Origin: an uncultured delta proteobacterium
Lineage (GTDB): Bacteria; Desulfobacterota; Desulfobacteria; Desulfobacterales; B30-G6
NCBI GenBank assembly: GCA_963823335.1
Contig: CAWGLD010000006.1
Coordinates: forward strand, 157,595 to 221,594
Direction of reading: 5' to 3'
Length of the DNA stretch: 64,000 nucleotides
How positions within the stretch are numbered: position 1 is the first letter of the stretch; every line of letters begins with the position of its first letter. Both the position numbers and the translations under genes were made by a program. Under the pieces are notes generated by a model that did not search any database, was not told where the DNA came from, and worked only from the letters and a program-made list of their open reading frames with translations. Shown piece after piece: positions 14,231 through 63,720 of the stretch.

Positions 14231-14512
14231 TTTCGCCACAGACTCACACAGACAATCTTCGGCCGACATAGCCGAAGATCAATCTCAATGCCCTTCGGGC
14301 ATTAAATTTTTGCTTATTTTATCAAAAACCGCTTCGCAACTTATTTGAGTAAATCTAATTTATGTAAATTTTTTTTGAAAATAAGAGATCATACCTCGCG
14401 ATAGCCATAATTGGTTATCTTCGATCAAGTCGATCGAAGATAAAAATAAAATGTCTGTGATTGTCTGCGTACCCCTCAAGGGGGTATTAAACAGAATGTG
14501 TCTGCGGCTACA
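14231..14512. mobile_element. MITE-like structured element (family D), copy 1
   Basis: GCCACAGACTCACACAGAC...GTGTCTGCGGC termini; hairpins with loops CGACATA and CAAGTCG; internal TGCCC-ttc-GGGCA. Confidence 0.8.
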
Positions 14513-14536
14513 TAAAAAGGATCTACACCGTTCACG

Positions 14537-14622
14537 AAACACCAAATACAAAACACCAAACACTAGACCCAACGAACGCAACAAACCCAACAAACTCAAT
14601 GAACGCAACAAACCCAATAAAC
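14537..14622 (+). repeat. AAACACC heptamers followed by AACCCAAC(A/G)/AACTCAATG nonamers (family I)
   Basis: AAACACCAAATACAAAACACCAAACACT then ACCCAACGAACGCAACAAACCCAACAAACTCAATGAACGCAACAAACCCAATAAAC, running into the GNAT start. Confidence 0.8.
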
Positions 14623-15096
14623 ATAACTGGCTATACCCCCGGCGCCATCGGTCGTATAACCGAACTTCATGGCAGGTATTACAATCAATCGTGGGGGTTT
14701 GGACCGTTCTTCGAGGCCAAAGTGGCCACCGAGTTATCCGAATTCATCGGCCGATTCGATGACCAGAAGGATGGCTTCTGGACGGCCTGCCTCGACAACC
14801 GCGTTCAGGGTTCAATTGTCATTGATGCTAAAAACGCCGATTCAGAAGGAGTCCATTTACGATGGTATATCGTTTCAGAAAGTCTTCACGGTCAAGGCAT
14901 CGGTGGTCTTCTTCTATCAGTGGCCATGCACTTTTGCCGTGAGCGGCACTATAAACAGGTGTTTCTCTGGACATTCAAGGGTCTCGATCCTGCCAGACAT
15001 CTGTATGATAAAAATGGGTTCAAGTTGGTACATGAGCAACAAGGATCTCAGTGGGGCACAACCGTCAAAGAACAGAAATATATCTGTGAGCTCTGA
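14599..15096 (+). CDS. GNAT family N-acetyltransferase
   Basis: HLRWYIV..HGQGIG acetyl-CoA motif and LWTFKGLDPARHLY. Confidence 0.88.
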   Translation: MNATNPINITGYTPGAIGRITELHGRYYNQSWGFGPFFEAKVATELSEFIGRFDDQKDGFWTACLDNRVQGSIVIDAKNADSEGVHLRWYIVSESLHGQGIGGLLLSVAMHFCRERHYKQVFLWTFKGLDPARHLYDKNGFKLVHEQQGSQWGTTVKEQKYICEL

Positions 15097-15181
15097 GCCT
15101 GACGGATCATCGCCCAATTTTAATTTATTTGGCTTATAGCTCCGTATTAAAAACTCAAAACTAAAAATTAAGAATTAAAAA

Positions 15182-15796
15182 TTGATCTTCTTAAAAGGTT
15201 TCATCATCGGCATATCCATCGCGGCGCCCGTCGGTCCCATCGGTGTGCTCTGCATTCAACGAACCATCAGCCATGGCAAGTTGAGCGGTCTGGCAACGGG
15301 TCTCGGTGCTGCCAGTGCAGATGCCGTATACGGTTTTGTGGCTGCCTTCGGTTTGACATTTATTTCCAACTTTCTTGTTGCCCAGCAAACCTGGTTCCGT
15401 CTTATCGGCGGCGGATTCCTCATCTATTTGGGCGTGCGGGCCTATTTTTCAAACCTGGACAATAGAACAGTAAACACAAACAACCCGAGCCTTGCCGGCG
15501 CTTACGGCACCACGTTTCTGCTGACCCTTTCCAATCCCATGACCATCCTCTCATTTGCAGCAATTTTTTCCGGTTTCGGTCTCGTGGATGCATCAATTCA
15601 TTATGGTTCGGCAGCACTGATGGTTATCGGTGTCTTTTGGGGATCCGCCTCCTGGTGGCTTTTCCTCTCCAGCGGCACCAACCTTTTACGTGGGAGACTG
15701 AATCAGAGACTGGTATGGGTCAACAAGTTATCCGGGATTGTCATTGCCGTCTTTGGTGTTGTAGCGATTGGCAGTCTATTGATAACAAGATACTAG
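15182..15796 (+). CDS. LysE/RhtB family translocator
   Basis: AAPVGPIGVLCI, GAASAD and LTLSNPMTI; six hydrophobic segments. TTG start is uncertain because a family M repeat precedes it. Confidence 0.88.
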   Translation: MIFLKGFIIGISIAAPVGPIGVLCIQRTISHGKLSGLATGLGAASADAVYGFVAAFGLTFISNFLVAQQTWFRLIGGGFLIYLGVRAYFSNLDNRTVNTNNPSLAGAYGTTFLLTLSNPMTILSFAAIFSGFGLVDASIHYGSAALMVIGVFWGSASWWLFLSSGTNLLRGRLNQRLVWVNKLSGIVIAVFGVVAIGSLLITRY

Positions 15797-15824
15797 ATTT
15801 CGGCCATGTTTTGAAATAAAAGCA

Positions 15825-15904
15825 ATCACGAAAACACGAAAATTTAAAAACACGAAAATCTTCATGGTCTATTTCGTGGTTTCGTACTTTCGTGATTTCG
15901 TGAT
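15825..15904. repeat. Palindromic CACGAAA(A) octamer element (family L)
   Basis: ATCACGAAAACACGAAAA...CACGAAAA / TTTCGTGGTTTCGTACTTTCGTGATTTCGTGAT. Confidence 0.8.
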
Positions 15905-15950
15905 AAATGATCTTTTTCTTTTCTCGTTTATCCAAACTGGAAAGTAAAAA

Positions 15951-16649
15951 ATGCATTTTCAGAAATTTATGCAGGGGATCTTGCGGTTTTTTCGTGGCTG
16001 GGGATTTTCCATCGTTGCGGCTGTTCTGATTGCCACGTCTTTCAAATCCGCCATTGCCGATTGGAACGATGTCCCGACAGGTTCCATGAAACCGACCATA
16101 CTCGTGGGAGACAGGGTCTTTATCAACAAACTGTCGTACGGTCTCAAAATCCCATACACAACCTGGCATGTCACCCGTTGGGGATCCCCCGCGCATGGCG
16201 ATATCGTTGTCTTCTATTCTCCCGCAGACGGCAAACGTCTGATCAAGCGAGTGATCGGCCTACCCGGGGATGAAATAGCTCTGCGCAACAACAAACTGAC
16301 TATCAATGGGAAAGCACTCGATTACAAAATAATTGACAAAACATCCCCCGGTCCCACAAACACAATAACGGAAGATGACTACGTCTACCTGCTTGAGGAT
16401 CTTTTAGGTAAGCGTCATTCCATCATGATATCAGATACTGGAACTCCTTTCGATTCTTTTGATCCTGTTATAGTACCAGAAGGCAGGATTTTTTTAATGG
16501 GAGATAACCGGGATAATTCAGCCGATTCCCGGTTTTTTGGTTTTGTCGAATTAAACCAGGTGCTGGGACATGCAACTAACATTGTTCTCAGTCGTGATGG
16601 ATCGTTCCTGAATCCGAGATGGGAGCGGTTCTTCAAAAAGCTTTTATAG
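15951..16649 (+). CDS. lepB: Signal peptidase I
   Basis: VPTGSMKPT (catalytic Ser), LIKRVIGLPGD (catalytic Lys) and MGDNRDNSADSR. Confidence 0.95.
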   Translation: MHFQKFMQGILRFFRGWGFSIVAAVLIATSFKSAIADWNDVPTGSMKPTILVGDRVFINKLSYGLKIPYTTWHVTRWGSPAHGDIVVFYSPADGKRLIKRVIGLPGDEIALRNNKLTINGKALDYKIIDKTSPGPTNTITEDDYVYLLEDLLGKRHSIMISDTGTPFDSFDPVIVPEGRIFLMGDNRDNSADSRFFGFVELNQVLGHATNIVLSRDGSFLNPRWERFFKKLL

Positions 16650-16785
16650 TTTTCAACGCAGTGTTGATAGCGCACGATTGTAAGGCTGGAATGATGGTGG
16701 TGAGAGATTAAAATATGCATGGTGTCTGAGTTTAACGATATATAGATCTCCTATGAGTCTCTACGCTGAAATATAAGGAGTTAAC

Positions 16786-17451
16786 ATGGAATTACGAGAA
16801 GCCATCCTGAATCGACGCAGTGTCCGAAAATTTTTAAAGAAAGATGTTCCTGAGGAACTGATCAAGGAGGTTCTGATGGATTCCCAGTGGGCGCCGTCCT
16901 GGGGAAACACACAACCATGGGAGGTCATGGTCATCACAGGGGCCCCTCTGGAAGAATTCAAACAGAAAAACAAAGAGGCTCTCTTCAGCGGTATAAAGCC
17001 GAAGCCTGAAATTCAGATGCCGGAAGTTTTTCCTTCCCGTTTAAAACATCGCTATGTCGATGTAGGCAAGAGAGTTCTGAAATCTCTTTCCATCGACCGG
17101 GAAGATCTCGACGCTCGACTCAAGTATTATGGTGATATGTTTTATCTCTTCGATGCGCCTGTCTTGGTCCTGTTTCTACTGAGAAAGGATGTTTTGCTGG
17201 AATATGCAATGTTGGATGTTGGTTTATACCTTCAGACATTGCTGCTGTCAGCCCATGACAAGGCGCTCGGTGGTATCGTGTTGGCGGCATCGGTCAACTA
17301 TCCGGACATCCTCCGTTCCCTCTTCCCCATCGATGCAGAAAAAACCATTGTTATGGGAACCGCTCTCGGCTGGCCGGACCACAAGGCGCCGGTGAATTGT
17401 TTTGAACGACAACGGGCCAGCCTGGACGATACGGTTACCTGGATCAAATGA
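16786..17451 (+). CDS. Nitroreductase family protein
   Basis: RRSVRKF and WAPSWGNTQPW; AAGGAG RBS. Confidence 0.92.
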   Translation: MELREAILNRRSVRKFLKKDVPEELIKEVLMDSQWAPSWGNTQPWEVMVITGAPLEEFKQKNKEALFSGIKPKPEIQMPEVFPSRLKHRYVDVGKRVLKSLSIDREDLDARLKYYGDMFYLFDAPVLVLFLLRKDVLLEYAMLDVGLYLQTLLLSAHDKALGGIVLAASVNYPDILRSLFPIDAEKTIVMGTALGWPDHKAPVNCFERQRASLDDTVTWIK

Positions 17452-17677
17452 ATAGAATCCTTTGAAAATATTTCTAAAATCATCATTCTTGAAATTTGAA
17501 ACACTCACTTTAGATCTTGACAATTTCACCCTATCCTCTTAATGTTATTTTTAATTTAAACCCTGCCATATTCTATGAATGCTTTTTATTTCGGGCAAGC
17601 TACCATACGGTACTGCTTTGGGTCGTTTGCCTAATGTCAGAACGAATTGTTTTAATTTTTTAACCAAGGAGGGGATC

Positions 17678-18871
17678 ATGCTTTCAAGAAGTTTTATAGT
17701 GTTCGTCTTGGCGTCTTTTCTTCTTATGCCCTGCACTGTTTTTGCCAACGACCCTGGGATTACCGACGATGAAATCGTTCTCGGCGTGACACAACCGTTG
17801 ACGGGCCCGGCTGCCGGATGGGGTGTTGCCATTACCGGTGGTATGCAGGCATGGGCAGACCACATCAACAACCAGGGGGGTATCCATGGCCGCAAAATCA
17901 AACTCATCATTAAGGACGACGGCTACAACCCGGCCAGAGCGATGGCAAACCTGCAGGAAATGAAAGACAAAATATTTGCAGTCGTGGCCCAGCTGGGCTC
18001 CGCCCCCTGCAACGCCGCAAAAGACTTTTATCCTGAAAACAAGATACCCTTGATAACCGCTTACGGAAGCCTGGGTATATATCAACACCAGCCCAAGGAA
18101 GCCCAGAAATACTACTTTATCTCCTACCCGGATTACGGAGACGAAACCGAATTTATGGCCACGTATGCCATAAAGAATCTCGGGGCCAAAAAAATTGCCC
18201 ATTTCTACCAAAACGACGAATATGGCTTGGGAGCCAATGCCGGTATTAAAAAAGCACTGAAAGCCAACCCCGGTGCGGCGACACTGGTGGCGGAAATTCC
18301 CTATGAAGTCACCGAAAGAGCTTTGGGGACCCACGCGCTCAAACTGAAAGAATCCGGGGCAGATCTACTCATCATGACAACCATGATGTCGAGTGGCGCC
18401 ATTATGACCAAAGAACTCGCAAAAATTGCCTATCACCCCACAGTCATGGGAAACTTCCCCATTGGCATGCCCGTCATGTATAAAATTGCCGGCGAAACAT
18501 GGGAAGGCACCTACACCAATGCGTCTGCTCACATGGGTCTGCCGGGTTTTCATCCCCCTGCAGACAGAGTTGCCGATATCATCAACGAGATCAATCCAAA
18601 ACTCAAAGGGCAGGAAGTTCTCGCTCTGTTTGGCGCTGCCTCGATGATGCACTTTGCCGAAGGAGCTAAAAACGCCGGCCGAAACCTTACAAGGGAATCC
18701 TTGATCAAGGGAATGGAAATGATCAAAGACTGGAAACCGGAAGGAATGGGGGCACCGGTTACATACGGACCCGATCGGCATAACGGTGTCAATGCCATCT
18801 ACCTCCAGATTGCCAAAGACGGCCAACACGTGCCCGTTGGAGACTACGTTGTCTTTCCGCCAAAATTTTAA
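17678..18871 (+). CDS. Liv-type ABC transporter substrate-binding protein
   Basis: AAGGAGG RBS before ATG 17678; signal peptide; PLTGPAA, GGIHGRKI and DDGYNP. Confidence 0.9.
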   Translation: MLSRSFIVFVLASFLLMPCTVFANDPGITDDEIVLGVTQPLTGPAAGWGVAITGGMQAWADHINNQGGIHGRKIKLIIKDDGYNPARAMANLQEMKDKIFAVVAQLGSAPCNAAKDFYPENKIPLITAYGSLGIYQHQPKEAQKYYFISYPDYGDETEFMATYAIKNLGAKKIAHFYQNDEYGLGANAGIKKALKANPGAATLVAEIPYEVTERALGTHALKLKESGADLLIMTTMMSSGAIMTKELAKIAYHPTVMGNFPIGMPVMYKIAGETWEGTYTNASAHMGLPGFHPPADRVADIINEINPKLKGQEVLALFGAASMMHFAEGAKNAGRNLTRESLIKGMEMIKDWKPEGMGAPVTYGPDRHNGVNAIYLQIAKDGQHVPVGDYVVFPPKF

Positions 18872-18880
18872 TCTCGTACG

Positions 18881-18963
18881 GGTTAATTCCCCGCAGCTTG
18901 CTGCGATAAGATTGGTATAATCTATTTTTAGCTACCTCGTGGCTTGCCGCGAGGTAGTTCATT
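18881..18963. repeat. Paired GCAGCTTGCTGC-type hairpins (family K, resembling IS200/IS605 or REP ends)
   Basis: CCCCGCAGCTTGCTGCG...TACCTCGTGGCTTGCCGCGAGGTAGTTCATT; a related CCTCGTAGCTTGCTGCGAGG lies near 27440-27460. Confidence 0.6.
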
Positions 18964-19008
18964 CCTTGACTTTTCGGATCTTTGGAACCTGTTTGAAGTC
19001 ACTTCTAT

Positions 19009-19764: not shown

Positions 19765-19771
19765 GAAAGAG

Positions 19772-20010
19772 CAATTTTGAATTATGAATTTTGATTATGA
19801 ATTAGATAGCTGATGACTGATAGCTCATAGGTTATAGGCAAGCGCTAGCATGCTGGATGCATTGTCAAAAACTCATCGTCGATCAAGTCGATCGATGATT
19901 GTCAGTGTGTGTCTGTGGCTAAATAAAAAAGATTTACACCTTTAGCGAAACACCAAACACTAAACACAAAATACCAAACACAAATTACACAATGAACCCA
20001 ACAAACACAC
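19772..20010. repeat. Composite intergenic repeats: family M, family A, right half of family D (19874-19922), AAACACC heptamers, family I start
   Basis: AATTTTGAATTATGAATTTTG; GATAGCTGATGACTGATAGCTCATAG; CATCGTCGAT-CAAGTCG-ATCGATG..GTGTGTGTCTGTGGCTAAATAAAAAAGAT; the right part mirrors the order seen at 14417-14622. Confidence 0.75.
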
Positions 20011-22573: not shown

Positions 22574-22711
22574 AGGCTTTTTGTAGATCGGTATCTCCCG
22601 ATCGGTGTTAAAAAAAGGCACTCTCTGTGACCTCTGTGTCTCTGTGGTGGAAAAAAAGAACCCTTTACCGATGCATTCTTAAACCTAAAGCCATTTAATT
22701 AGGATACTACG

Positions 22712-26190: not shown

Positions 26191-26730
26191 TTGGGTTATT
26201 GAGTTTGTTGGGTTTATTGAGTTCGTTGGGTTCGTTGCGTTTATTATTTGGGTGCAGTAAATGCCGATTAGAAGGTTTGAAGATATTGATGCATGGAAAG
26301 AGGCCAGAAAACTTGTTATTTTGGTCTATCAGGCGATTGATTCCAATGATTTTTTCAGAAAAGATTACAGACTTGTCAATCAAATTCAAGGTGCGGCAGT
26401 TTCTGCAATGTCAAATATTGCAGAGGGTTTTTCAAGAAGAAGCAACAAAGAATTCATCCAGTTTCTTTTTATTTCGAAAAGTTCAGCTGCAGAGGTTCAA
26501 AGTCAACTATACGTCGCCCTCGACCAGAAATATATCGACAATGAAACATTTAATAAACTTTATTCACAAGCCGAAACAGTTTCAAGACTTACTTCCGGCT
26601 TCATCAAATACCTAAGATCTCAACTCAACAAACCAAGGCAACCAGGTTAACTCAATGGCACTCCCATATGCCCCAGAGCATTCAACAACTCGACGAACTC
26701 AATAAACCCAACGAACCCAACGAACACGAC
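26191..26730. mobile_element. Family I element carrying a four-helix-bundle gene
   Basis: Upstream TTGGGTTATTGAGTTTGTTGGGTTTATTGAGTTCGTTGGGTTCGTTGCG and downstream AACTCAAC...AACTCGACGAACTCAATAAACCCAACGAACCCAACG form inverted arrays around the gene. Confidence 0.75.
26261..26650 (+). CDS. Four helix bundle protein (TIGR02436 / 23S-IVP / Avd-like family)
   Basis: FEDIDAWKEA, QIQGAAVSAMSNIAEGF, EFIQFLFISKSSAAEVQSQL. Confidence 0.93.
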   Translation: MPIRRFEDIDAWKEARKLVILVYQAIDSNDFFRKDYRLVNQIQGAAVSAMSNIAEGFSRRSNKEFIQFLFISKSSAAEVQSQLYVALDQKYIDNETFNKLYSQAETVSRLTSGFIKYLRSQLNKPRQPG

Positions 26731-26804: not shown

Positions 26805-27254
26805 ATGAAACTCAAACAAATCACCATTTCAATTGAAAATGAGCCCGGTCGACTACTGGAAGTAACGGAGGCCCTGGGCAATGCCGGGATCAACCTCCGG
26901 GCACTCAATCTGGTGGACACCGGCGCCTTTGGTCAGCTGCGATTGCTTGTCTCCGATGTCAGAAAAACCCGTCACATCCTGATGGGTTTGCAAGCGGCAG
27001 CTCATGTCGAAGAAGTCGTTGCAGCAGAAATCGAAGACAAATCCGGCAGTTTGGCGGCCATCTTAAAACCACTCAAGGCTGCAAACATCAATGTTGTTTT
27101 CATGTACGCCTTTATTGGCTTGTCATCCGACAAGGCCGTCATGATCTTCAAATTCAGCGACAACGACAGGGCAATAGAACTCCTTCAAAGCATTCATGTC
27201 CGTATACTGGATGCCAAAGCCTTTGGCATCCTGGAGTCGGGGAACAACCATTAG
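26805..27254 (+). CDS. ACT domain-containing protein (two ACT repeats)
   Basis: QITISIENEPGRL..GINLRAL and EIEDKSGSL..INVVFMYAF. Confidence 0.88.
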   Translation: MKLKQITISIENEPGRLLEVTEALGNAGINLRALNLVDTGAFGQLRLLVSDVRKTRHILMGLQAAAHVEEVVAAEIEDKSGSLAAILKPLKAANINVVFMYAFIGLSSDKAVMIFKFSDNDRAIELLQSIHVRILDAKAFGILESGNNH

Positions 27255-27351
27255 GCTGTTAGGCTGTAGACTATGAGGGTTTGAGGGTAGCGTTCATTAA
27301 TCAGATCGCTTTTTCGTAAAGCGCTAAATTGTTTTGACGTTGAGAAACGAG

Positions 27352-27666
27352 TGAACATCGAACGTCCAACATCGAACATCGAATTTTGAACCGCAACAGC
27401 GTGCGCATTCCCGTAGGTTCTGCCGCACGGCAGAACATTCCTCGTAGCTTGCTGCGAGGTTCTTCAATTTAAAAAGAAGAAGAAACAGGCAAATCGTTGA
27501 AGGGCTTCCAAATATCAGAGCAAGTAAACATGTTGTGGCCAATTGTTAAGATTGAAAGCGTTGCCATACCCAAGGCATCAAACAAATTGAAAAGAAACAG
27601 ATATAATTCGATATTGATATTTGTTTTCATTCGATGTTGGACGTTGGACGTTCGATGTTCGACGTT
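27352..27666. repeat. Family B element, copy 2 (contains a family K hairpin)
   Basis: Left GAACATCGAACGTCCAACATCGAACATCGAA; right TTCGATGTTGGACGTTGGACGTTCGATGTTCGACGTT. Confidence 0.85.
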
Positions 27667-27696
27667 ATTCTTTTAAATAGTAACTCGGTAAATAAA

Positions 27697-30021
27697 ATGA
27701 ACAAACAACCATCTAGTGACTCCCACGGCCTGGAGGATGCCGGAAGCTTAGAAGCCTGTGACATACCTCAGGACCGCTATCGTGTTTTCATTCAGGACGT
27801 TGCCGATGCATTTTTTGAAACAAACATTCAGGGAGATTTTATATTCTTCAACGACGCGCTGTGCCGTATATTCGGATATTCCAGAGAGGAGATCGAACAT
27901 CAGAATTTCAGGCTTTTTATGGACGGTGCCACTGCTGAATATGCCTTTGACAGCTTCAACAAGATGTTCGAAACGGGAAAAGGTGTCAACAACATCCTAT
28001 GGGAAATATCCAGAAAAGATGGTGGAACCCGAATACTCGAAATAAATGCCAACCTCTTAGAAGATACAAACGGTGTCAAGGTAGGATTTCAGGGTATCGC
28101 CAGGGATGTTACCGACAAGATCAAAGCCGAGCAGGCATTGAAAGCATCGGACAAGCAAATCCAGGAGCAGTATCTGGCCAGCCGCATGGCAGAGCAGCGC
28201 TATCGCTCATTTATGGAATTCATGCCGGTTCCGGTGTTTGTCTTCAATATGGATGGCACCGTCTCTTATCTTAACCCGGCATTTGAAAAAACATTTGGAT
28301 GGACACTGGGCGAGCTCGAGGGCCGACATATCTCTTTTGTACCGGAGGATCAGAAGGCAAAAACCCGTCAGGGTATTCAGCAGCTCTTTGAAAAGAAAAG
28401 AATAACGGGCTTCAAAACCCAGCGTCTTACCAAGGACGGAAAAATTCTCGATATTGTTTTGGATGGCGCTATTTTTTATGACGAGAACAACCAGCCCGCC
28501 GGTCAGGTAGTCACACTCCAGGACGTCACACAGGAAAACCGCGGCGCCCGCATCAACCAGGCCCTCTTCAGGATCGCCCAGGCACTCTATCAATTCAGGG
28601 GACTGGACGAACGGCTGGAATTTATTGCCAAGGAAGTCAAGGAGCTCATCGACGGCAGCGGCGCCATGGTCATTCTGGTGGATCATAAAACAAACGAATT
28701 CTTTTTTCGCGAAGCCGCTTTTGAAAGCGAAATCACCGGCCAGAAAATAAAAGAACTTCGCTTTCCCCTGGACAAGGGTGTCGCCGGAGAAGTCTATCGT
28801 ACCGGCAAACCCATGATCGTCAACGACACCTCTAAAAACCCTCATATCTTCAGAAAAGTAGATGACCAGGCCGGGATGCAGACCCACAGCATGCTGGATG
28901 TCCCCATCCATATCGAAAACCGGATGATCGGGGTTTTGTGCATTGTCAACAAGCGCAGCGGCCCCTTTGACCAGGCAGACACCGACCTGGTGAGTACCAT
29001 CGCCAACATGGTGGCACTTCCCATCGAAAATGCCCGTATCAACGAAGCCCTCCGAAAGTCCTATGAAAATGTCACAAACCTGAACAGGGCCAAAGACCGG
29101 GTGATTCACCATCTGTCCCACGAACTCAAAACACCCGTGTCTGTTTTATCAGCCTCATTGAATCTTTTAAAGAAACGATATCAGGGGCCCGACGCAGCAG
29201 GTCTTTCGAAAATCCTGGATCGTGCCGAACGGAATCTCGATCGGATCCTGGACATGCAGTATGAAATCGAAGATATCATGGATCGACGTGACTATCGGAG
29301 TCATCGTATGCTCTCTTCCCTGCTGGATGTCTGTCAAGACGAACTCGAGGTCATGGTTGCCGATGAAACTGGTTCGGAACGATTTACAGATCGTTTGCGG
29401 CATCGTATCGACAGCCTTTTTGGTCCACGCAATATCATATCTGAGGAAATCAAACCCGCTTCTCTTTTATCGAATCTTTTTGAATCGTTGCGCCCTCGTT
29501 TCGCACATCGTTCTTTTGACATCGAAACACGCTTTGATCCTACCGAAGCGATATTGATTCCCCCGGAAGTCCTGACTAAAATTGCGGAAGGGCTTATTCG
29601 TAATGCCATTGAAAACACACCGGATGGCGGGCGCATTGTCATATCGTTGACCCAGGGATCCAAGGGGCCTGAGTTGGTTGTCCAGGATTTTGGCGTGGGG
29701 ATATCGGAAGAGAACCAGCGCTTGATTTTCGAAAACTATTTCACGGCATATGAGACAGCCCAATACGCATCACGCAAACAATATGACTTCAACGCCGGCG
29801 GCAAGGGGTTCGATCTTATTCGGATACGAATATTTTCCGAAAGATACCACTTTAAATTGAAGATGACATCCAAACGATGCCCTCATCTTACAAACGATAA
29901 GGATTCAGGCCCCGGCAGCATCGCTGCTTGTGAGCATTGCAGAAAAGATGCAGATTGTTTATCATCCGGAACCACCATGACAGTACTGTTTTTACCGGCT
30001 AAGACGGTAGCGGTTCAATGA
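27697..30021 (+). CDS. Cytoplasmic PAS-PAS-GAF sensor histidine kinase
   Basis: Two PAS domains, a GAF domain (KGVAGEV, MLDVPI), H-box HHLSHELKTP, RNAIENT and DFGVGI. Start set at ATG 27697 because the upstream extension translates a family B repeat. Confidence 0.9.
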   Translation: MNKQPSSDSHGLEDAGSLEACDIPQDRYRVFIQDVADAFFETNIQGDFIFFNDALCRIFGYSREEIEHQNFRLFMDGATAEYAFDSFNKMFETGKGVNNILWEISRKDGGTRILEINANLLEDTNGVKVGFQGIARDVTDKIKAEQALKASDKQIQEQYLASRMAEQRYRSFMEFMPVPVFVFNMDGTVSYLNPAFEKTFGWTLGELEGRHISFVPEDQKAKTRQGIQQLFEKKRITGFKTQRLTKDGKILDIVLDGAIFYDENNQPAGQVVTLQDVTQENRGARINQALFRIAQALYQFRGLDERLEFIAKEVKELIDGSGAMVILVDHKTNEFFFREAAFESEITGQKIKELRFPLDKGVAGEVYRTGKPMIVNDTSKNPHIFRKVDDQAGMQTHSMLDVPIHIENRMIGVLCIVNKRSGPFDQADTDLVSTIANMVALPIENARINEALRKSYENVTNLNRAKDRVIHHLSHELKTPVSVLSASLNLLKKRYQGPDAAGLSKILDRAERNLDRILDMQYEIEDIMDRRDYRSHRMLSSLLDVCQDELEVMVADETGSERFTDRLRHRIDSLFGPRNIISEEIKPASLLSNLFESLRPRFAHRSFDIETRFDPTEAILIPPEVLTKIAEGLIRNAIENTPDGGRIVISLTQGSKGPELVVQDFGVGISEENQRLIFENYFTAYETAQYASRKQYDFNAGGKGFDLIRIRIFSERYHFKLKMTSKRCPHLTNDKDSGPGSIAACEHCRKDADCLSSGTTMTVLFLPAKTVAVQ

Positions 30022-31642: not shown

Positions 31643-31957
31643 TTAGCCACAGACACACACAGACCTACACAGACAACCATCGATCGACTTGATCGATGAA
31701 TACCTATCAATGCCCTGCGGGCATACTCAAGTATTCCGAGGAGTTGAAGCAAGGGACCAACACAGAAATTGGGCTAAAAAACTTTTTTGAGATAGCTTCT
31801 ATTCTTTGTCTTAGAAAATATGATGGATTTGTTCGGCCAAGTCGGCCAAACAAATGTCTGTGTTCGTCTGCGAGTGTCTGCGGTAAATAAATAAAACACC
31901 TTTCAACTCGTAAACTGTAACAACCGTCCGTGCAAGTCCGTGTGTGTCTGTGGCAAA
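31643..31957. mobile_element. Family D element, copy 3
   Basis: TTAGCCACAGACACACACAGACCTACACAGAC; hairpin loops CGACTTG and CAAGTCG; TGCCC-tgc-GGGCA; right end doubled. Confidence 0.82.
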
Positions 31958-33986: not shown

Positions 33987-34147
33987 TTAGCCACGGACAC
34001 ACACAGACAATCACAGACATTTCTCTCTTTCGACTTGAAAGAGAGAAAAAATGCATTCACTTCGTGTCAGTATGATATGCCCAAAGGGCATTGAGATTGA
34101 TCTTCGACCATGTCGGTCGAAGATTGTCTATGTGTGTCCGTGGCTAA
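33987..34147. mobile_element. Family D element, copy 4 (short, reverse orientation)
   Basis: TTAGCCACGGACACACACAGAC...GTCTATGTGTGTCCGTGGCTAA; loops CGACTTG and CATGTCG; TGCCC-aaa-GGGCA. Confidence 0.85.
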
Positions 34148-35640: not shown

Positions 35641-36027
35641 TTACCACACGGTCTTTACTCCATATGATTTGAACAAATTGTCCTTGGTCAAAACCGTCAT
35701 TTTCTCTTTCAATGCCTCGGCAATAATGATGCGATCAAAAGGATCACGGTGAATGAACGGAAGAGTTGCGGCGGATATAGCTGCAGTGAACCCAATTGGA
35801 ATTGGTAAAACATTGAGTTGTTGCAATGCTTCCGCTATAAACCGTTGCGGCACATCTGGAAGTTCAAGGCGTTTGAGCTGCTGCAGCATCGAGATCTCCC
35901 AAGCGCTCGCCGCGCTTAGATAGAGATGATTGTTTTGTTCTTCCACGATCTCCCGCACGTTTTCCGACAGGGACAACGGGTCGCCGGCCATCCAAAGAAA
36001 TGTGTGGGTGTCAAGAAGATAGGACAT
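35641..36027 (-). CDS. vapC: VapC-family PIN toxin
   Basis: YLLDTH, SAASAWEI and HRDPFDR; overlaps the antitoxin gene. Confidence 0.9.
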   Translation of the reverse strand: MSYLLDTHTFLWMAGDPLSLSENVREIVEEQNNHLYLSAASAWEISMLQQLKRLELPDVPQRFIAEALQQLNVLPIPIGFTAAISAATLPFIHRDPFDRIIIAEALKEKMTVLTKDNLFKSYGVKTVW

Positions 36028-36268
36028 CGTTTGCACGCTCGGGCCAAAAATCGTTTAAAATATCATCCGGTATCGGTTCATCAAAATCCTCATGAAGCTT
36101 CATTTTACCTGAATATACTCCCAGTTGCCGTTTCCCGCCTGCCTTTTTAACCGGGACCAGTTTTACCAGTGGATGCCCTGACTTGGTAATAATGACTTCT
36201 TCACCCGAAAGAACCGCCGGTATCAGTTTTGAAAGCTTTGTTTTTGCTTCATGAATACCGATTTCCAT
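36011..36268 (-). CDS. Phd/YefM-family antitoxin
   Basis: IHEAKTKLSKL..GEEVIITKSGHPLVKLVP; C-terminal DFDEP. Confidence 0.9.
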   Translation of the reverse strand: MEIGIHEAKTKLSKLIPAVLSGEEVIITKSGHPLVKLVPVKKAGGKRQLGVYSGKMKLHEDFDEPIPDDILNDFWPERANDVLSS

Positions 36269-47264: not shown

Positions 47265-47497
47265 CTATTGATAAGAAATCCACCAAAAGCCATACATTGT
47301 TTGGCATCCTGTCTTTATACTTCAATTTTTATGCCAATTGACCTTATCATCCGGAAGAATTTTGAATTAGCAAATATTTCAATGGATAACATGCCATTAA
47401 TTAAATTATTTTTCAATGGGTCATGATAGGTGCTATCGATATGTTGAAAGGAGTTACATAGAAGGTGTGGTATAAAGTATATATACTTTTTCGTAGC

Positions 47498-47667
47498 GTT
47501 AGATGTGAGACCTAATAATTGCCGTTAGATGTAAGACGATGCTCACTTTAAAACATCGTGAGACGTTAGAAGTAAGACGTGAGACGATGCTATCAGCTCT
47601 ACGTCTCACGTCTCACATCTCGCTTCTCACGCTCTTGATCTTATGTCTCACCTCTCATGTTTCACGC
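47498..47667. repeat. Family H, copy 3
   Basis: Shares a block of about 70 bp with copies 1 and 6; merges with the four-helix gene stop codon. Confidence 0.85.
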
Positions 47668-48018
47668 CACTCTGGCAGCAATAGACTTTATCAACCCACT
47701 CAATAGTGCAAAAACTTTGTCAGCCTGTTGCAACAGTTCAGTATCTTTCGAAATATATCTAATATCAATAGCAATTAACAATTGGGTCTCGAGCTCACTC
47801 AAGGAGCCTCTCGCGATGTACAGAAATTGAAGGTATTCCTTTTTGCTGTTTCGAGCAGCGCCTTCTGCTATATTCGAAGGCACAGACACTGCCGCCCTAC
47901 GAATCTGACTCGTCAAACCATAGTTTTCATCTTTTGGGAAAACTTTTGTCGCTGTATATACCTGCTTGACCAAGGCCATGGATTCTATCCACACGTTTAA
48001 TTTTTGATGGCTCCGCAT
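47662..48018 (-). CDS. Four helix bundle protein (TIGR02436 / 23S-IVP / Avd-like family)
   Basis: HQKLNVW, FPKDENYGLTSQIRRAAVSVPSNIAEG, FLYIARGSLSELETQL. Confidence 0.95.
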   Translation of the reverse strand: MRSHQKLNVWIESMALVKQVYTATKVFPKDENYGLTSQIRRAAVSVPSNIAEGAARNSKKEYLQFLYIARGSLSELETQLLIAIDIRYISKDTELLQQADKVFALLSGLIKSIAARVA

Positions 48019-48047
48019 TCTTCATTCCTTACTGCAAATAAAAGATG

Positions 48048-48153
48048 GTTAGACGTAAGATGTGAGATGTACTGTTAGACGATGCTATCAGCTCTACGCT
48101 CACGTCTCACGTCTTACATTTCACGTCTCACGCTTCTGGTCTTACCTCTCACG
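48048..48153. repeat. Family H, copy 4
   Basis: GTTAGACGTAAGATGTGAGATG..GACGATGCTATCAGCTCTACG..TCACGTCTCACGTCTTAC. Confidence 0.85.
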
Positions 48154-49279: not shown

Positions 49280-49403
49280 GTTAGACGTAAGACGTGAGAT
49301 GTGCAGCAACAAAGGATCGTTAGATGTAAGACGCAAGACGTGAGACGGGCTAATCTCTTCACGTCTCACGTTTAACGTCTTACTTCTCACGTCTTACATC
49401 TCA
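49280..49403. repeat. Family H, copy 5
   Basis: GTTAGACGTAAGACGTGAGAT...CACGTCTCACGTTTAACGTCTTACTTCTCAC. Confidence 0.85.
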
Positions 49404-49430
49404 AGTTTACCGTCTCCCCGTTCCATTTAT

Positions 49431-49672
49431 TCACCACAAAGACGCAGAGGACGCAAAGGATTTTCTTTTTTATCTTGATCGCTGAGACGCCGATCAAGAT
49501 AAACCACCATGCCCTGCGGGCAGGATAATTAATCGTAATCTTAGATAGATGGTCAGACAAACTTAAGGCAGTGAATGATTGATTTTCCGAAGGAATAAGA
49601 TCTTTTGATTTTCGGCGTCTCAGTGAAAATCAAAAAAATATGTTCTCTGCGTCCTCTGCGTCTTTGCGGTGA
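49431..49672. mobile_element. MITE-like structured element (family E, ACGCAGAGG/ACGCAAAG repeats)
   Basis: TCACCACAAAGACGCAGAGGACGCAAAG...CTCTGCGTCCTCTGCGTCTTTGCGGTGA; hairpin loops GCTGAGACGCC and GGCGTCTCAGT; mini-hairpins TGCCC-tgc-GGGCA and TTCC-gaa-GGAA. Confidence 0.85.
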
Positions 49673-50600: not shown

Positions 50601-50615
50601 ATTACCTTCAATGTT

Positions 50616-50835
50616 CGTGAGACGTTAGAAGTCAGAGGTAAGACGATATTCACTATTAAAACAGCGTTAGACGTTAGAAGTAAGATGTTAGACGATGCTC
50701 ACTTAAAACATCGTTAGACGTAAGATGTGAGACGTTAGACGATGCTATCAGCTCTACGTCTCACGTCTTACATCTCACGTCTCACGTTTCTCGCCTCACT
50801 TCTTACATCTCACGTTTCTCGCCTCACATCTCACG
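50616..50835. repeat. Family H, copy 6
   Basis: Longest copy; fills the whole rfbC-rfbD gap and supplies the rfbC TGA stop. Confidence 0.87.
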
Positions 50836-51400: not shown

Positions 51401-51442
51401 TAATAGCCTTGTAGCATTTGGATGAGAAAGTTCTTTATTCTT

Positions 51443-51689
51443 AGACAGGATTAACAGGATTTTGCAGGATTATCTTTTTTCTTTCTCTCTTTCCGGACGA
51501 AAGAGAGAAAACTCAATCCACTTTCGGTGGAAAACCATATAATGTGATTCAATCATTCACACGAATAAGTAATATATTTTTATGAGACGTTTAATTCATG
51601 ATGTGGATGGATATTTAGTTATCGCCAGAGGCGATGGAATCTTTGCGATTTCGTCTGGAAATCGCAAATAAATCATGTCAATCCTGTCA
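51443..51689. mobile_element. MITE-like structured element (family F, ACAGGATT repeats)
   Basis: GACAGGATTAACAGGATTTTGCAGGATT...AATCATGTCAATCCTGTC; hairpin loops CCGGACG and CGTCTGG; mini-hairpins TCCAC-tttcg-GTGGA and ATCGCC-aga-GGCGAT. Confidence 0.82.
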
Positions 51690-51774
51690 GATAAAACAAC
51701 CACCCTGCCTTTGAGCAACACAACCAATAATTAAAAACTCAAAATTCAAAATTGCTCATATGCATCCTATCCTA

Positions 51775-53655: not shown

Positions 53656-53927
53656 CACACAGACTTACACAGACATTGTCTCTGTCGACATGACAGAGAC
53701 AATCCTCTCATGCCCTGCGGGCATACTATCATTCTTGATTCTATATCACGATTTTCTTATTCGATTCCAAATTTTGCAATATTTAGAATACTACCCGACA
53801 AAGAAAAAGTTCGGATTGAAATGGTAAATGAAAATTTCGCGATAGCGAAGATTGTTTTTCTTCGGACAATGTCGTCCGAAGAAAAGGAAAAAATTGTCTG
53901 TGTAAGTCTGCGTGGGTCTGTGGCTAA
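53656..53927. mobile_element. Family D element, copy 5
   Basis: CACACAGACTTACACAGAC; ATTGTCTCTGT-CGACATG-ACAGAGACAAT; TGCCC-tgc-GGGCA; right loop CAATGTCG; GTCTGTGGCTAAATAAAAA. Confidence 0.83.
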
Positions 53928-54061: not shown

Positions 54062-54454
54062 TTATACCTTCAATTGCAGCAACCCCGGAACCAGCATGAA
54101 ATGTTTATCCTTGCTGAAAACCTTGTATCCATGCTGAAAGGCAACAGCGGCAATCCATATGTCATTGGTAGGAATGGGTGTGCCCGCTGTCTTAAGGCTA
54201 TCCAGAATGGAAGCATAAAAATCAGCGGTCCCTTCGTCTATGGAGTGAACGAAAACCCTTGGAGAATCCATAAAAATATTAAGTTCTTCTCTATTTTCGG
54301 CCTCATATCGCCCCCCTTTAAATCCCGAATAGAGTTCACCGATACTGATGGCTGAAAAACCAATTCGATCAATCTTTCTCAGCGTTTTAACGACGTTTAC
54401 ATCACCCTTCATGGCCAACGAATAAATATTGGTGTCGATCAACACTTTTTTCAT
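54062..54454 (-). CDS. vapC: VapC-family PIN toxin
   Basis: VLIDTNIY, ISIGEL, PIPTNDIWIAA and SKDKHF. Confidence 0.92.
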   Translation of the reverse strand: MKKVLIDTNIYSLAMKGDVNVVKTLRKIDRIGFSAISIGELYSGFKGGRYEAENREELNIFMDSPRVFVHSIDEGTADFYASILDSLKTAGTPIPTNDIWIAAVAFQHGYKVFSKDKHFMLVPGLLQLKV

Positions 54455-54714: not shown

Positions 54715-54773
54715 GCTCTCCTAAGTTTAATGTCAATTGATGACTTTATTATGCTATCAATATATGACATCAT

Positions 54774-55140: not shown

Positions 55141-55189
55141 AAAACGATATTTATATATGAATGTACGTCCCCTAGTTCTTCGCCCCGAA

Positions 55190-56475: not shown

Positions 56476-56576
56476 CGATCAGGTTCATCCTTCTTTATCA
56501 AAAAAACCACTTTAGCCTTCCTTCAGATTTGCGGCCTTGTGGTTTCTGCCAAAAAATAACACGATTATATCCAAAT

Positions 56577-56712: not shown

Positions 56713-56758
56713 GGCACTTTTCTCCCAATTAATTGGGAGAAGAACCATCATAATCAAC

Positions 56759-59700: not shown

Positions 59701-61472
59701 TCTCGGGTACTCTGGCAGCCTGCTCTTCGAATAGCTGGTGAATGCATTTTTCAGATGGAAATTCAACCTCTGTGTTGTTCCATTCTTCGAAAAGCCGGTT
59801 TTTCTCATCAGGTGAAAGTATAGACAACCCAGCAACCTTCCGATCTAAATCCCCAGTGGCGTCCTCTAAAAAGCTGATGAACTGTGCCACAAAGCGTTTG
59901 ACATCTTGTTCCGCGATTGCCTTTGGGTCAAATATGCATCGACAAGCATCAGGATCTCTCGAGACTGCCAGCGTGAGGACGCTTCTGGATTGGGCCTTGT
60001 GCGACTCGCCATCGTCTGTCATAACAATATTTACCGGGGATACAGACAGCCCGCCATTTCCATTGTTTTGGCCCAATTCGGCATACCGTCCCCAGACGTC
60101 CAATGCATAGGTTTTATTTTGGACTGTGGATTCAATGCTTACACACAAAGCCTTCAATACATCCTCAAAACCTGCCTCGGGGTCGATGCTTACACGCAAT
60201 GGCACGTATTCTGAAAACAGGCCAACGTGCCTCCCAATTTCTGCCATCAATGCAGCGTGGCTGAATCCAACATGAAAATCATTTATGCCGCAGTGCCGGC
60301 CGATAAAAATGCCCGAAAGCGGCCGATAGAGATATCCGGAGATCACCATCGAATTTCTTGAATGCACTTAAAACAGCACCGGGTATGTGTATGGGTACAC
60401 TTTTGAACTCGAGTTTCTTTTTAAAAGCAAATTTCTTTTTTGCGTAATGCAGGTCGACAAATGTCAATGCGGATAATTGATTGACCCAATAGCTTCACTC
60501 CCGGCAATCCCGGCATTCAGTTTATCAATTTCTTGCGCATCTTCATCGGCCGGTCCATCGAACCTGAATCCCCGGCTTTAAAGAATATGTATACGTCAAT
60601 CCGGCAATGGACAAGGGCACACCGTCTATGGATGCTCCTCTGGAAATTTCCACATCATTTGTTCCCGTTGCCACCCGGATGCGTTCTTCATCGATTGCGG
60701 TGATTGTCCCGGGAGTTTCGGTCGATGGCATGTCCGTAACTGCCAGTTCCCGAATCACGAAGTATTCATCACCCGCCTTTATTTTTGGCAAACCAAGGGG
60801 ATTCCCATAAGGACCAAAATCAAGTGCTTTCACGAGGGCCGAAATTTCTTCCGCACTCCTGCGCCAATCGATCGCGGACGCCTGGGCAGGCCGCTGATAT
60901 TTTCCGTAGTATGACCGTTTGTCGGAAAGCTGATGCGTGACCTTCGCCCCACCATTGGCGAGCTCCTGCACCAGTGTGCTAAATGATGAAAGCCCGGCCT
61001 CAAAGCATTTCGCATTCAAAGAAAGAGACGTTTCCATTTCGTCCACATCGAATACGGCCTGTTTGAGAATGCCTCCTTTGTCAATTTCAGAGCTGATTTC
61101 GTGCCAGGTAACCCCATGAGCCTTCTCCCGGTTCAGGATCGCCCATGAAGTGGCATTCAGACCCGCGTATCTGGGAAGCGGCCCGTCATGAAAGTTGATG
61201 GCAGACTTGCGAGGGGTATTGATAACCCCGTCGGGCAATACGGATAGATTGGTTATACTGAAAAGATAATCATAGGGTTTTTCTTTCAGGCAATCGGGCA
61301 GGCTTTTGTTCAGTTCCAGTGTTTGGATGTCTTTTTCGGCCGCCCACTGTTTAATGGTCGGATTCGATGAAACAATGCCGAAGATATTGTGCCCGCGTTG
61401 GAGCAGTACCTCGCTGCATTTTACCAGCAGCGATTTTTCTCCTATAATATAACAGCTGAACTTTTCGGACAT
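56759..61472 (-). CDS. Formyltransferase-(degenerate C)-A-T-T-TE NRPS-like protein, broken by about 5 frameshifts (pseudogene or assembly errors)
   Basis: 60543-61472 formyltransferase (INFHDGPLPRYAGL, IDKG); 57263-60367 A domain (YTSGSTGKPKG, SFDIS, NMYGPTE, YRTGD, GYRIELGEIE), two PCPs (GGESL, GGKSI) and TE (GWCMGG). Frames switch near 60560, 60493, 60310, 57295 and 56830; the last shift gives GHEINLW..CLL-stop at 56759. Confidence 0.8.
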
Positions 61473-61574
61473 TAGGTTAGATATCCTTTTTTTCTTGTCT
61501 TCACCCTCTTAAACCTTCAGATAAGCTTTAAGTCCGGGTTTTGTTTTGTACGTCTAATCTTTAGATTATTTTTG

Positions 61575-62548
61575 CTCTCGCCCGCTGTCGCTCGAGAACA
61601 CAGAGATCACAGGGAATTATAAGGACTTTCTCTGCGGCTCTGCGAACTCTGTGAGAGGTAATATTTTACTCTCGCCCGCTGTACGCTCGAGCTCTCAGAG
61701 GTCACAGAGAACTTATTTCCTTTATCTGATTCTTGAGAAGGGAGAATCAGATAAAACCACTCAAACAATATCCTCTCTTTTTATATTGATGACTCGAGTG
61801 ATTCCGTCCTTCAAAAACGGTTCATTAAAATATTGTATTGGTCAATACACGAAGTGTTGAGAGTTTTTCCTTTTCTTTCCCACTCAAAAGAAAAGGAAAT
61901 AATTAGTTCTCTGTGACTCTGCGCACTCTGTGAGAAGTAATATTTTACTCTCGCCCGCTTCGCTCGAGAACACAGAGAACTCAGAGAAAAATACTCAATC
62001 GGTACCCTTATTAACATCGTTAATGATTCGAGTAATTCCGTCCTTCAACAAAGGTTCATTAAAATTTATCAACAGCCCGAGTGGTTTATTTGCAATTTTT
62101 AAATAGGTCAACAATTGTTTTTTATGAACTTCTTTCACTTTTTCTACAGACTTCAATTCAACAATCACCGTGTCTTCTACCAGCAAATCTAACCGAAAAC
62201 CTTGATCACTAATTTCTTTTCCACGATAGAAAACGGGGCAAGGTTTTTCTCCTTCAACTTCTATTCCTATTTGGTTTAGTTCAATGATCATGCAAGATTG
62301 ATATACAGATTCAAGCAGACCAGGTCCTAATTCTTTATGGATGCGTATTGCAGCCTTGATGATATTTGAAGATATCTGATTTAACTCCATTTGTTTAAAT
62401 ATTTAATGGTCAATACACGAAGTGTTGAAAGTTTTTCCTTTTCTTTCCCCTCAAAAGAAAAGGAAATAATTAGTTCTCTGTGACTCTGAGATCTCTGTGA
62501 GAGATAAGATTTTCCTCTCGCCCGCTTTGCTCGAGACCTCAGAGAGAG
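61575..62548. mobile_element. Head-to-tail array of family G elements (CACAGAG/CTCTGTG repeats): mini unit, deleted unit, GxxExxY-bearing unit, partial unit
   Basis: CTCTCGCCCGCT..GCTCGAG starts at 61575, 61669, 61948 and 62515; right ends CTCTG..CTCTGTGAGA near 61657, 61937 and 62503. Confidence 0.85.
61995..62390 (-). CDS. GxxExxY protein (PD-(D/E)XK nuclease superfamily, PDDEXK_3-like)
   Basis: LGPGLLESVY, RLDLLVEDTVIVELKS, QLLTYL and GLLINF. Confidence 0.95.
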   Translation of the reverse strand: MELNQISSNIIKAAIRIHKELGPGLLESVYQSCMIIELNQIGIEVEGEKPCPVFYRGKEISDQGFRLDLLVEDTVIVELKSVEKVKEVHKKQLLTYLKIANKPLGLLINFNEPLLKDGITRIINDVNKGTD

Positions 62549-62581
62549 GCTCTAATTTTTTTTTGAGACGATCAAATTAGG

Positions 62582-63398
62582 CTATGGTTTGTTTGGTTGA
62601 TGCGTTGCCATGAACTTCTGCTGGGCAGCACGAAGCTTTCTGACGGCTTCGCTGGGGATCTCCGACAGACCCGAAGCTGGTACGTCAATTTTGCCGGTTC
62701 GATCGGGATGGGTTTGCACACACACGGATCCGGCCGGGAATTGGCCGCTAAAGTCTATATCACCCTGCATCAGGATTTGTGCCGGAACCCCCATTACCGT
62801 CGCACCGGCAGGAACATCCTGGACCACCGCGGAGTTCGCACCAATCGTTGCCCAGGGCCCCACCTTGAGATCCGGCATGATCGAAGCGTTTGTCCCCACA
62901 TACACGCCGTCACCGAGCTGAACGCGGGCATTGATTACGGCACCGGGCGCAACCACACATCCTCTTCCGACATGGCATCCGTGACCCACAAGTGACCGCA
63001 TCAAGGCCACCGATCCCGCCCCCACCGTCGCGTTCGCACACAGTTGGGCGCCCGGGTAGACGGTGATATCTCCATTGAAATCAACCCCCGAGGTGTCGAT
63101 ATCCGGATTGATAAGTGCACGCCAGAGGCAGACCGAATTCCTTGATTCTGTTCAAGGCGGACAGGCGTGCCTTAGTAGTCCGCGCCACCATGTTGGATAC
63201 CTCGTCAACATCCGGATCGGCGTGGGCAAGCATGCTGAAAGGCCCGGCTATCTCGATACCGAGTATCGAACGGCCATGTATTGCAGGGTTGTCATCCAGA
63301 ATGATCACCCTATCCCACCGGTTCTGGGCTTTGTTGACGGTCAGGGCCAGCCGGACCCCTTCAGGGTTCCCGGCGCCACATAGATACAACGTTTTCAT
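62582..63398 (-). CDS. NeuD/PglD-like sugar acetyltransferase (left-handed beta-helix), frameshifted near 63120
   Basis: N-terminal LYLCGAG..ILDDN; continues in another frame as ALINPDID.. hexapeptide repeats, IGANSAVVQDVP..VMGVPA. Confidence 0.8.
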
Positions 63399-63416
63399 TG
63401 CAATTTCCTTTCAGCA

Positions 63417-63458
63417 ATAAAATCGTGAAACGATTTCATGTAGCACGACTTCGTCGCT
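63417..63458 (+). repeat. Family C element, copy 7
   Basis: ATAAAATCG-tgaaa-CGATTTCAT gtag CACGAC-ttc-GTCGCT, upstream of the start at 63398. Confidence 0.72.
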
Positions 63459-63468
63459 TAAAATTATC

Positions 63469-63720
63469 TTCTCACAGAGTCCGCAGAGCCGCAGAGAACT
63501 AATTATTTCCTTTTCTTTTGAGATGAAAGAAAAGGAAATCTTCTCAACACTTCGTGTATTGACTGAGGTATTCGAACAGGGATTTGAACGCGAAAATATC
63601 TTATAGAACAAATCCGAAGGAATTGAGGAGTTTTGTCTGATTTTCCCCCTCGAAAAATCAGACAAAAAATAAAAATATCTCTGAGTTCTCTGTGTACTCG
63701 AGCGATAGCGGGCGAGAGTA
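63469..63720 (-). mobile_element. Empty family G element in inverted orientation
   Basis: TCTCACAGAGTCCGCAGAGCCGCAGAGAACTAATTATTTCCTTTTCTTT..CAACACTTCGTGTATTGAC..CTCGAGCGATAGCGGGCGAGAGTA, the reverse complement of both family G ends, with no ORF. Confidence 0.85.

Follow-up and report, generated by a model that had tools for sequence, protein, structure and literature searches.

Mirror-image hairpin elements of four families in a Desulfobacterales genome and their association with GxxExxY nuclease genes

Repetitive extragenic palindromic (REP) sequences and the bacterial interspersed mosaic elements (BIMEs, REPINs) to which they belong are accompanied by RAYT, a small HUH/Y1 transposase whose gene is flanked by inverted hairpin repeats, and they exist as hundreds of near-identical copies. 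Miniature inverted-repeat transposable elements (MITEs), the intervening sequences (IVSs) of 23S ribosomal RNA (rRNA) and the attC sites of integrons are further described systems in which inverted repeats or palindromes play a part. Herein, we analyse a stretch of 64,000 nucleotides (nt) from an uncultured delta proteobacterium of the Desulfobacterales (GenBank assembly GCA_963823335.1, contig CAWGLD010000006.1, forward-strand positions 157,595 to 221,594), which is referred to as the window and harbors four families of hairpin-bearing elements termed D, E, F and G. On balance, we favour the reading that these families are lineages of one superfamily of DNA cassettes bearing a GxxExxY nuclease of about 125 amino acids (aa), and that the copies in the window, except one designated as G2, are gene-less or gene-deleted. 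That the four families form a superfamily of small cassettes had been proposed in a preliminary description made from the letters of the window alone, with which the present analysis agrees.

The elements are constructed from the same modules in the same order. From the outside inward, each arm starts at a CCAC/CCGC terminus, continues with tandem 7-nt words of the pattern C-R-C-R-R-A-N, of which there are two to four, and leads into a long and fully Watson-Crick hairpin, often followed by a GC mini-hairpin of 5 bp; the loop of the long hairpin repeats the triplet (GAC, GAG or GGA) that distinguishes the word. The two arms of an element are inverted copies of one another, and word and loop stand on each arm's own strand, which amounts to a two-fold DNA symmetry. 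The mirror-image plan of word array, long hairpin, small GC hairpin and core, the family-specific loops and the ten copies of D, E, F and G had all been put forward in the preliminary description, and each was recovered where it had been placed. The complete, gene-less D1 (14235-14508) contains on its left an array, a hairpin with the loop CGACATA and a TGCCC mini-hairpin, followed by a unique AT-rich core, and on its right a TCGC mini-hairpin, a hairpin with the loop CAAGTCG and an array broken by an ACCCC..GGGGT hairpin; a consensus scan, which is not used as evidence here, gave no promoter-like site in D1 and a mini-hairpin resembling a terminator on both strands. D2 (19875-19919) is a single end made of a hairpin with the loop CAAGTCG and an inverted array, D3 (31646-31883) is accompanied by an older outer D array (31927-31955) that is also found in the congeneric genome G005, D4 (33990-34144) is the shortest complete member, and D5 (53656-53924) is again complete and gene-less. 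E1 (49431-49672) is characterized by the words CGCAGAG/CGCAAAG, the loop CTGAGACGC with its complement and a TGCCC mini-hairpin, while F1 (51441-51692) possesses the words ACAGGATT and the loops CCGGACG / CGTCTGG. Modules are shared between families, as the preliminary description had also stated: the TGCCC-tgc-GGGCA mini-hairpin is common to D and E, and the stem TTTCTCTCTTT, which is the left stem of D4 and recurs in F1, carries a D loop at 34031 and an F loop at 51493. The sequence TGCCCTGCGGGCA occurs seven times in the genome against 0.13 expected.

The link to a gene is most directly seen in family G. The full cassette G2 (61946-62504) consists of a terminal module, an array, a GxxExxY nuclease gene that forms its core (61995-62390, minus strand, 131 aa), a mini-hairpin, a long hairpin and an inverted array. 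The gene product matches PF13366 (PDDEXK_3; E 8.2e-42, 142.7 bits against a cut-off of 22) and TIGR04256 (E 2e-43, 147.4 bits against 35), and all 25 sequences aligned have, without exception, G24, E27 and Y30 of the GxxExxY motif as well as the catalytic D68, E78 and K80 (D..ExK). Its AlphaFold model (predicted local distance difference test, pLDDT, 93) retrieved nothing from the Protein Data Bank (PDB) at E <= 1e-3 by Foldseek; the top match was Cas4 (4r5q; E 4.1e-3, template modelling score 0.49), and the other weak neighbours were lambda-exonuclease-type nucleases and Hjc, all of them of the PD-(D/E)XK fold, while a sequence search of the PDB gave no match. In the entries of a PD-(D/E)XK survey that concern GxxExxY/PF13366, it is a large family with the function given as 'Unknown' and with 'multiple transfers' (PMC3424549). 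GxxExxY genes were found in 38 of 61 genomes of the order and in 34 of 121 genomes of a phylum sample. Beside G2 lies G1 (61667-61937), which keeps 43 nt of the 3' end of the nuclease gene (61789-61831; 90.7% identical to G2 over these 43 nt and 86.7% over the 15 aa encoded) and the right arm (94.8% over 97 nt), and is thus an internal-deletion copy of G2. G0 (61573-61658), which was missing from the preliminary list, is an 'empty' copy composed of a terminal module, an array, 9 nt and an inverted array, and G3 (63470-63722) is complete and gene-less, with the terminal module on its right.

Comparable associations exist for the other families. The remaining two PF13366 genes of the genome of the window (G000) are situated among the D elements of a second contig, C5, and D ends enclose or adjoin five GxxExxY genes in three congeneric genomes, namely G000, G004 (two genes) and G007 (one gene). 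The mini-hairpin TGCCCnnnGGGCA constitutes the coding end of three of the five D-linked proteins, whose C-terminus is P(E/A)GH; it persists in gene-less copies and is reversed in E1. When the nuclease was compared by tblastn with the cores of D, E and F, only these C-terminal mini-hairpin codons were retrieved and a true gene remnant was seen only in G1; the AT-rich cores of D, E and F therefore hold no recognisable gene remains. An E-type element encloses a GxxExxY gene in G008 (L039), and F-type ends with the loop CGTCCGG stand on both sides of such a gene in G001 (L059), to which F1 is 84.8% identical over 79 nt. In addition, relatives of E and G that are built on GAG words and possess GAGA-type loops carry the gene in their core at four loci (L033, L034, L037 and L043), and L034 displays the complete order of array, hairpin with the loop GGAGACGA, gene, hairpin with the complementary loop and inverted array. 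This cargo is absent from the preliminary description: the elements are not free-standing, complete members carry a GxxExxY gene, and most copies in the window are gene-less or gene-deleted. Arms of different families can recombine: in a mosaic cassette of G004 (L015:5664-6345), one flank of a GxxExxY gene bears D-type words and a D-type hairpin, and the opposite flank combines an E-type loop (CTGAGACT) with a mixture of CTCTGCG and GTCTGCG words.

Whether repeat unit and loop vary together, a check proposed in the preliminary description, was answered in the affirmative. Array-plus-hairpin ends numbered 110 at first and 87 once 14 overlapping loci had been dropped. Of the 63 ends with GAC words, 60 have GACNT loops, and GAG[A/G/T] loops accompany all 19 ends with GAG words and three of four with AAG words. 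The ends are related copies, and few independent events lie behind these counts. The classes also follow the enzyme. In a quick maximum-likelihood tree of 33 GxxExxY proteins (125 columns), all seven proteins with GAC words form one clade (support 95 by the Shimodaira-Hasegawa-like approximate likelihood ratio test, SH-aLRT), the GAG, AAG and 'mix' classes fall in another (17 rows, support 99), and GGATT-type rows stand apart; 10 changes of word class are required, against 21.2 with shuffled labels, and none of 200 shuffles is as low. The flanks of the 33 GxxExxY genes in the order show one dominant C-R-C-R-R-A-N word class in 25 cases and two classes in two; L033 has single word copies by count and arrays visible by eye, and five genes scored as 'none' have GGATT-type words by eye. 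Under a simple and strict test for inverted tandem words, at least 10 of 27 GxxExxY genes of the phylum-wide sample pass, which is a lower bound, against 0 of 1350 shuffles. The agreement of word, loop and clade fits a cognate enzyme and its site, and it fits simple descent as a unit as well.

The fold of the arms is conserved beyond their sequence. Folded as single-stranded DNA, D4 reaches a minimum free energy of -51.5 kcal/mol against -16.4 in shuffles (z = -11.45), and its paired arrays form a basal stem that encloses the long hairpin, the mini-hairpin and the second long hairpin; E1 folded as RNA gives z = -9.5. When the long hairpins of D in the window and C5:476-499 kb (n = 26) were aligned, they revealed a loop C-GAC-N-T-G in which C, G, A, C and T are invariant and one position is free. 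In these hairpins 89.3% of the stem cells pair, changes on both sides occur at 9 of 11 stem pairs (55 cells), and the covariation score is 0.568. Shuffling gives 0.178, with none of 500 shuffles attaining the observed score, and sliding the partner gives no more than 0.171; given that the hairpins are related copies, these figures overstate independence. Despite this kinship, stem covariation around a fixed loop is unambiguous in family D, in line with the covariation check that the preliminary description had suggested. RNA helices usually gather G-U pairs. Among 972 stem positions of 82 hairpins, 23 are mismatched, five of the G-T type, seven of the A-C type and 11 of other types; with no G-T excess, both strands appear to be kept complementary, which points to DNA rather than RNA as the level at which the arms are read. 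Of the earlier notion of folded single-stranded DNA or RNA, the DNA half is thus favoured and the RNA half is not.

By blastn-short searches of the 4.37-Mb genome, D ends are restricted to the window and the end of C5 (476-499 kb), E and F are single copies, and G is confined to the end of the window. A scan for D loops within hairpins yielded 39 matches among 2510 occurrences of the loop motif; those in the window and C5 regions (n = 26) have stems of 7-12 bp and those elsewhere (n = 13) stems of 6-8 bp. In C5:476-499 kb, D elements separate almost all genes, and the 18 D copies of the two contig regions are at best 82-83% identical to one another. Tandem arrays of 7-mer words number 859 genome-wide against 200 in shuffled sequence. 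For 146 of them, with many different words, a second array lies in inverted orientation no more than 2.5 kb away; the four families are thus drawn from a larger population.

Across the genus, we compared two orthologous gene gaps, which had been selected for the presence of D in G000. The gap between the NAD synthase and GNAT genes contains a full D in G000 and G005, a shortened D in G007, an F-type element in G001 and a cassette with a four-helix-bundle gene in G009, while more distant genomes are without any of these. The gap between the response regulator and arginase genes holds D with the older outer D array in G000, a short D in G007, a complete GAG-type element in G005 (bounded by an F-array remnant on one side and by that older D array on the other), an F half in G001 and nothing recognisable in G009. 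Families therefore replace one another at fixed gaps, and the replacement apparently takes place inside earlier arms. Identical occupancy of orthologous sites, which the preliminary description had counted against mobility, was encountered in part: throughout the genus the sites are filled, yet the families that fill them differ. Moreover, the right hairpin of F1 is 93% identical over 43 nt to an F copy at a different locus in G001; in the rmlC neighbourhood of relatives, the F1 site is not visible, as the only close match lies at a contig start. The orthologue of D1 in G005 is identical at 238 of 263 positions (90.5%), and at 86.3% of those in its unique core, whereas third codon positions of the two flanking genes are 73.6% and 65.1% identical between the same genomes, which in this one pair is a sign either of constraint or of a more recent exchange confined to the element itself.

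The analysis thus establishes the anatomy, the link to the nuclease gene, the agreement of word, loop and nuclease clade, the covariation of the stems and the turnover of families at shared gaps; beyond this, we infer that mobility of the cassettes may be driven by the nuclease. In the proposed mechanism, the arms would be read as extruded DNA hairpins, either single-stranded or cruciform, by the cognate nuclease lineage, which would cut or mark them; cassettes would be copied into gaps in which such arms are already present, or be replaced there, and gene-less copies would rely on the nuclease in trans, as REPINs do on RAYT, with some of them perhaps kept by selection. We further entertain, tentatively and with more doubt than conviction, the broader idea that GxxExxY nucleases and their arms represent a class of DNA elements, so far undescribed, that are selfish or semi-domesticated and have a three-base code (GAC, GAG, GGA ...), displayed twice per arm, in the tandem words and in the extruded hairpin loop, and recognised by a minimal PD-(D/E)XK nuclease; nuclease lineages and codes would diversify together, cassettes would swap at arm-bearing gaps, and gene-less copies would be selected.

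Several points weigh against a mobile cassette served by its own nuclease. The position of the gene varies, as it lies within the arms in the G and GAG types and, in D, after a complete element or between two direct copies of one end, and the match of clade and word may reflect only descent as one unit. A host protein or another trans factor could read the arms, since four-helix-bundle cassettes use similar word arms without a GxxExxY nuclease. To judge by their identity of no more than 82-83%, the D copies are old and show no sign of recent activity, and they are clustered in one or two regions rather than dispersed. We found neither a transposition event nor a target-site duplication nor a clean empty site. 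The flanks are AT-rich and themselves inverted, so that a duplication is unreadable, and no empty allele could be aligned at the two gaps; both of these are hot-spot sites picked for the presence of D in G000.

An explanation at the RNA level, which we consider unlikely, would make the elements passengers like the IVSs of 23S rRNA, transcribed with the operon and cut by RNase III at the array stem, with hairpins that serve RNA stability or processing only and a nuclease gene that is mere cargo. Their plan does match that of IVSs, for which a terminal inverted-repeat stem, an open reading frame (ORF) in the loop and cleavage by RNase III are described (PMC4990558). The elements also lie within operons, as D2 does between two ABC ATPase genes, and a 627-nt RNA-library contig spans D2, although such contigs can neither show ends nor prove transcription. 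The 5' arm of the hairpin is T-rich in 62 of 87 cases and A-rich in 16 (control 165:188), and in neither direction is the hairpin therefore followed by a T-run (U-run in RNA). This is appropriate for elements that have to leave host operons unterminated, and would be expected of RNA passengers as well. The left and right loops are complementary; however, the free loop base differs between them in five of the nine D elements for which both loops were recorded (by eye, with D5 excluded for its degenerate right loop), and loop-loop pairing is therefore not what is conserved, which weakened the kissing-loop idea that had been considered. The lack of a G-U excess in the stems (five G-T against seven A-C mismatches) and the tracking of nuclease clade by word and loop class likewise speak against RNA passengers.

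Domestication by the host, under which the elements would be binding sites or insulators between genes, notably in the polysaccharide cluster, and the nuclease-like protein their binding factor instead of an enzyme that mobilises them, seems to us no less improbable. It draws strength from the excess of D1 and core identity over flanking third codon positions, from the filling of the same gaps across the genus and from the D elements between nearly all genes of C5:476-499 kb; set against it are the mostly deleted copy of G007 at the D1 site, the lack of any copy in G009 at the second site, the substitution of unrelated families for each other at one site, the orphan state of E and F, which have no cognate gene in this genome, and the strict retention of the catalytic residues. 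Exchange as in integrons, in which one end would act as an attC-like folded single-stranded DNA site and gene-plus-end units would join resident ends, is very improbable in our estimation. A nuclease gene between two direct copies of one end (C5:489780-490325, with a similar arrangement in G004) and hairpins whose structure is conserved while their stem sequence varies would suit it, yet attC arrays lack the two-fold symmetry of these elements, the intervals between D elements are filled by biosynthesis genes that are syntenic in relatives rather than by shuffled cassettes, and no integrase turned up, no search having been aimed at integrases.

Other repeats and genes surround the elements. 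At gathering thresholds, Rfam gave no match and no rRNA in the whole window, and a scan for tRNA genes found none there. The 82-nt repeat nested in the core of D3 (31720-31801) recurs at about 40 other places on eight contigs with 92-100% identity over 68-87 nt, and is a separate small repeat that was active much more recently. A lone end of the GAG-word family (22586-22650), with the hairpin loop GTATCTCC and three copies of CTCTGTG, was missing from the preliminary list. Arrays of other words (AATTTTGA.., GATAGCT/CATAGCT) lie to the left of D2 (19784-19878), and in an RNA-library contig whose strain of origin differs by about 2% (11 other letters in 504) seven letters replace these 95 nt and the D2 end is kept. 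An RNA-library contig likewise has 31 other letters in place of 31677-31925 of D3, which, with 29 letters on the shorter side, is a hint only; the RNA-library joints 19908->31935 and 22649->31061 were dismissed as array-to-array artefacts. CA-rich arrays (..AAACACCAAA / CACTAAACAC..) occupy the interval that separates the outer end of a D arm from the start codon that follows, at 14520-14600 and 19925-19990, in G000 as well as in G005/G007.

Two four-helix-bundle genes (PF05635 by Pfam) are present at 47662-48018 and 26261-26650. The former is flanked by GTGAGAC/GTTAGAC words and their inverse around a shared centre; these GTGAGAC-word elements were also missing from the earlier list, and the word family extends over 47490-47660, 48040-48150, 49350-49420 and 50610-50835 and fills the rmlD/rmlC spacer as a gene-less hairpin. 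The first codons of the GNAT gene (MN-A/P-TNP..) are part of an array of 9-nt words (..CAACAAACC / CAATGAAC..; 14540-14630 in the window, about 1400-1520 in L023-L025). In G009, a four-helix-bundle cassette is still complete at this site, and the array is its right arm. This repeat arm seems to have supplied the GNAT start codon, because more distant orthologues are without that extension. Scattered among the D elements of the polysaccharide cluster in this genus are four-helix-bundle genes and genes of the PIN, MNT/HEPN and Fic toxin-antitoxin type (35641-36036 and 54062-54454 in the window; L001, L017 and L018). At 27207-27873, contig depth exceeds that of neighbouring bins by a factor of 50-100 in all four runs (278-1144 against about 5), with many joints at 27376-27640, and this segment is probably another repeat common to many organisms of these sediments.

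The large orphan family GxxExxY would be tied in this way to a structured DNA partner, and the match of word, loop and clade offers a directly testable substrate. The cassette reading would account for a good part of the hairpin-rich intergenic DNA in genomes of the sulfate-reducer type, where such relics can provide coding sequence and outlast the silent sites of neighbouring genes in conservation. A link to the STRR repeats of cyanobacteria is possible; a literature search on short tandem and heptanucleotide repeats was of no help in this regard. Searches of the literature on GxxExxY, PDDEXK_3, PF13366, TIGR04256, TIGR02436 and PF05635 returned nothing on cassettes or arms.

Among the known systems, attC sites of integrons resemble the present elements as imperfect palindromes between genes whose fold is conserved more than their stem sequence, but differ from them in the symmetric design, tandem words and fixed loops seen here, with no integrase linked and none searched for. 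The IVSs of 23S rRNA (PMC4990558) share a small ORF in the loop of a terminal inverted-repeat stem and tolerance within transcription units, and the four-helix-bundle genes of this genome sit in word-repeat arms of the same general kind; in contrast, D to G lie between protein genes instead of within 23S rRNA, their cargo is a nuclease and not S23p, and they possess internal hairpins with conserved loops and DNA-type stem pairing. With MITEs they have in common terminal inverted repeats, the absence of a gene, subterminal repeated motifs and internal deletion from a gene-bearing element, which holds for G1 and G2, while all that D keeps of the gene is the C-terminal codons in the mini-hairpin; they differ from MITEs in having neither a recognised transposase nor a target-site duplication that can be read, and they show no burst of similar copies. 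The likeness to REP/RAYT is seen in one small nuclease-type gene between inverted hairpin repeats, in the more numerous gene-less inverted doublets between genes, in long persistence at fixed sites and in repeat families that match enzyme lineages. The differences are an enzyme of the PD-(D/E)XK fold in place of a Y1/HUH transposase, composite arms of 60-90 nt (tandem words, loop-specific long hairpin and mini-hairpin), and few, clustered and diverged copies (18 for D, about 83% identical at best; one each for E and F) in place of many similar and dispersed ones. REP/RAYT, MITEs and the 23S rRNA IVSs are hence named as the closest analogues, each of them with defining features that the present elements lack. 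The remark in the preliminary description that no described system has exactly this plan is in accordance with our literature searches, even though the logic of the cassettes resembles that of REP/RAYT and MITEs.

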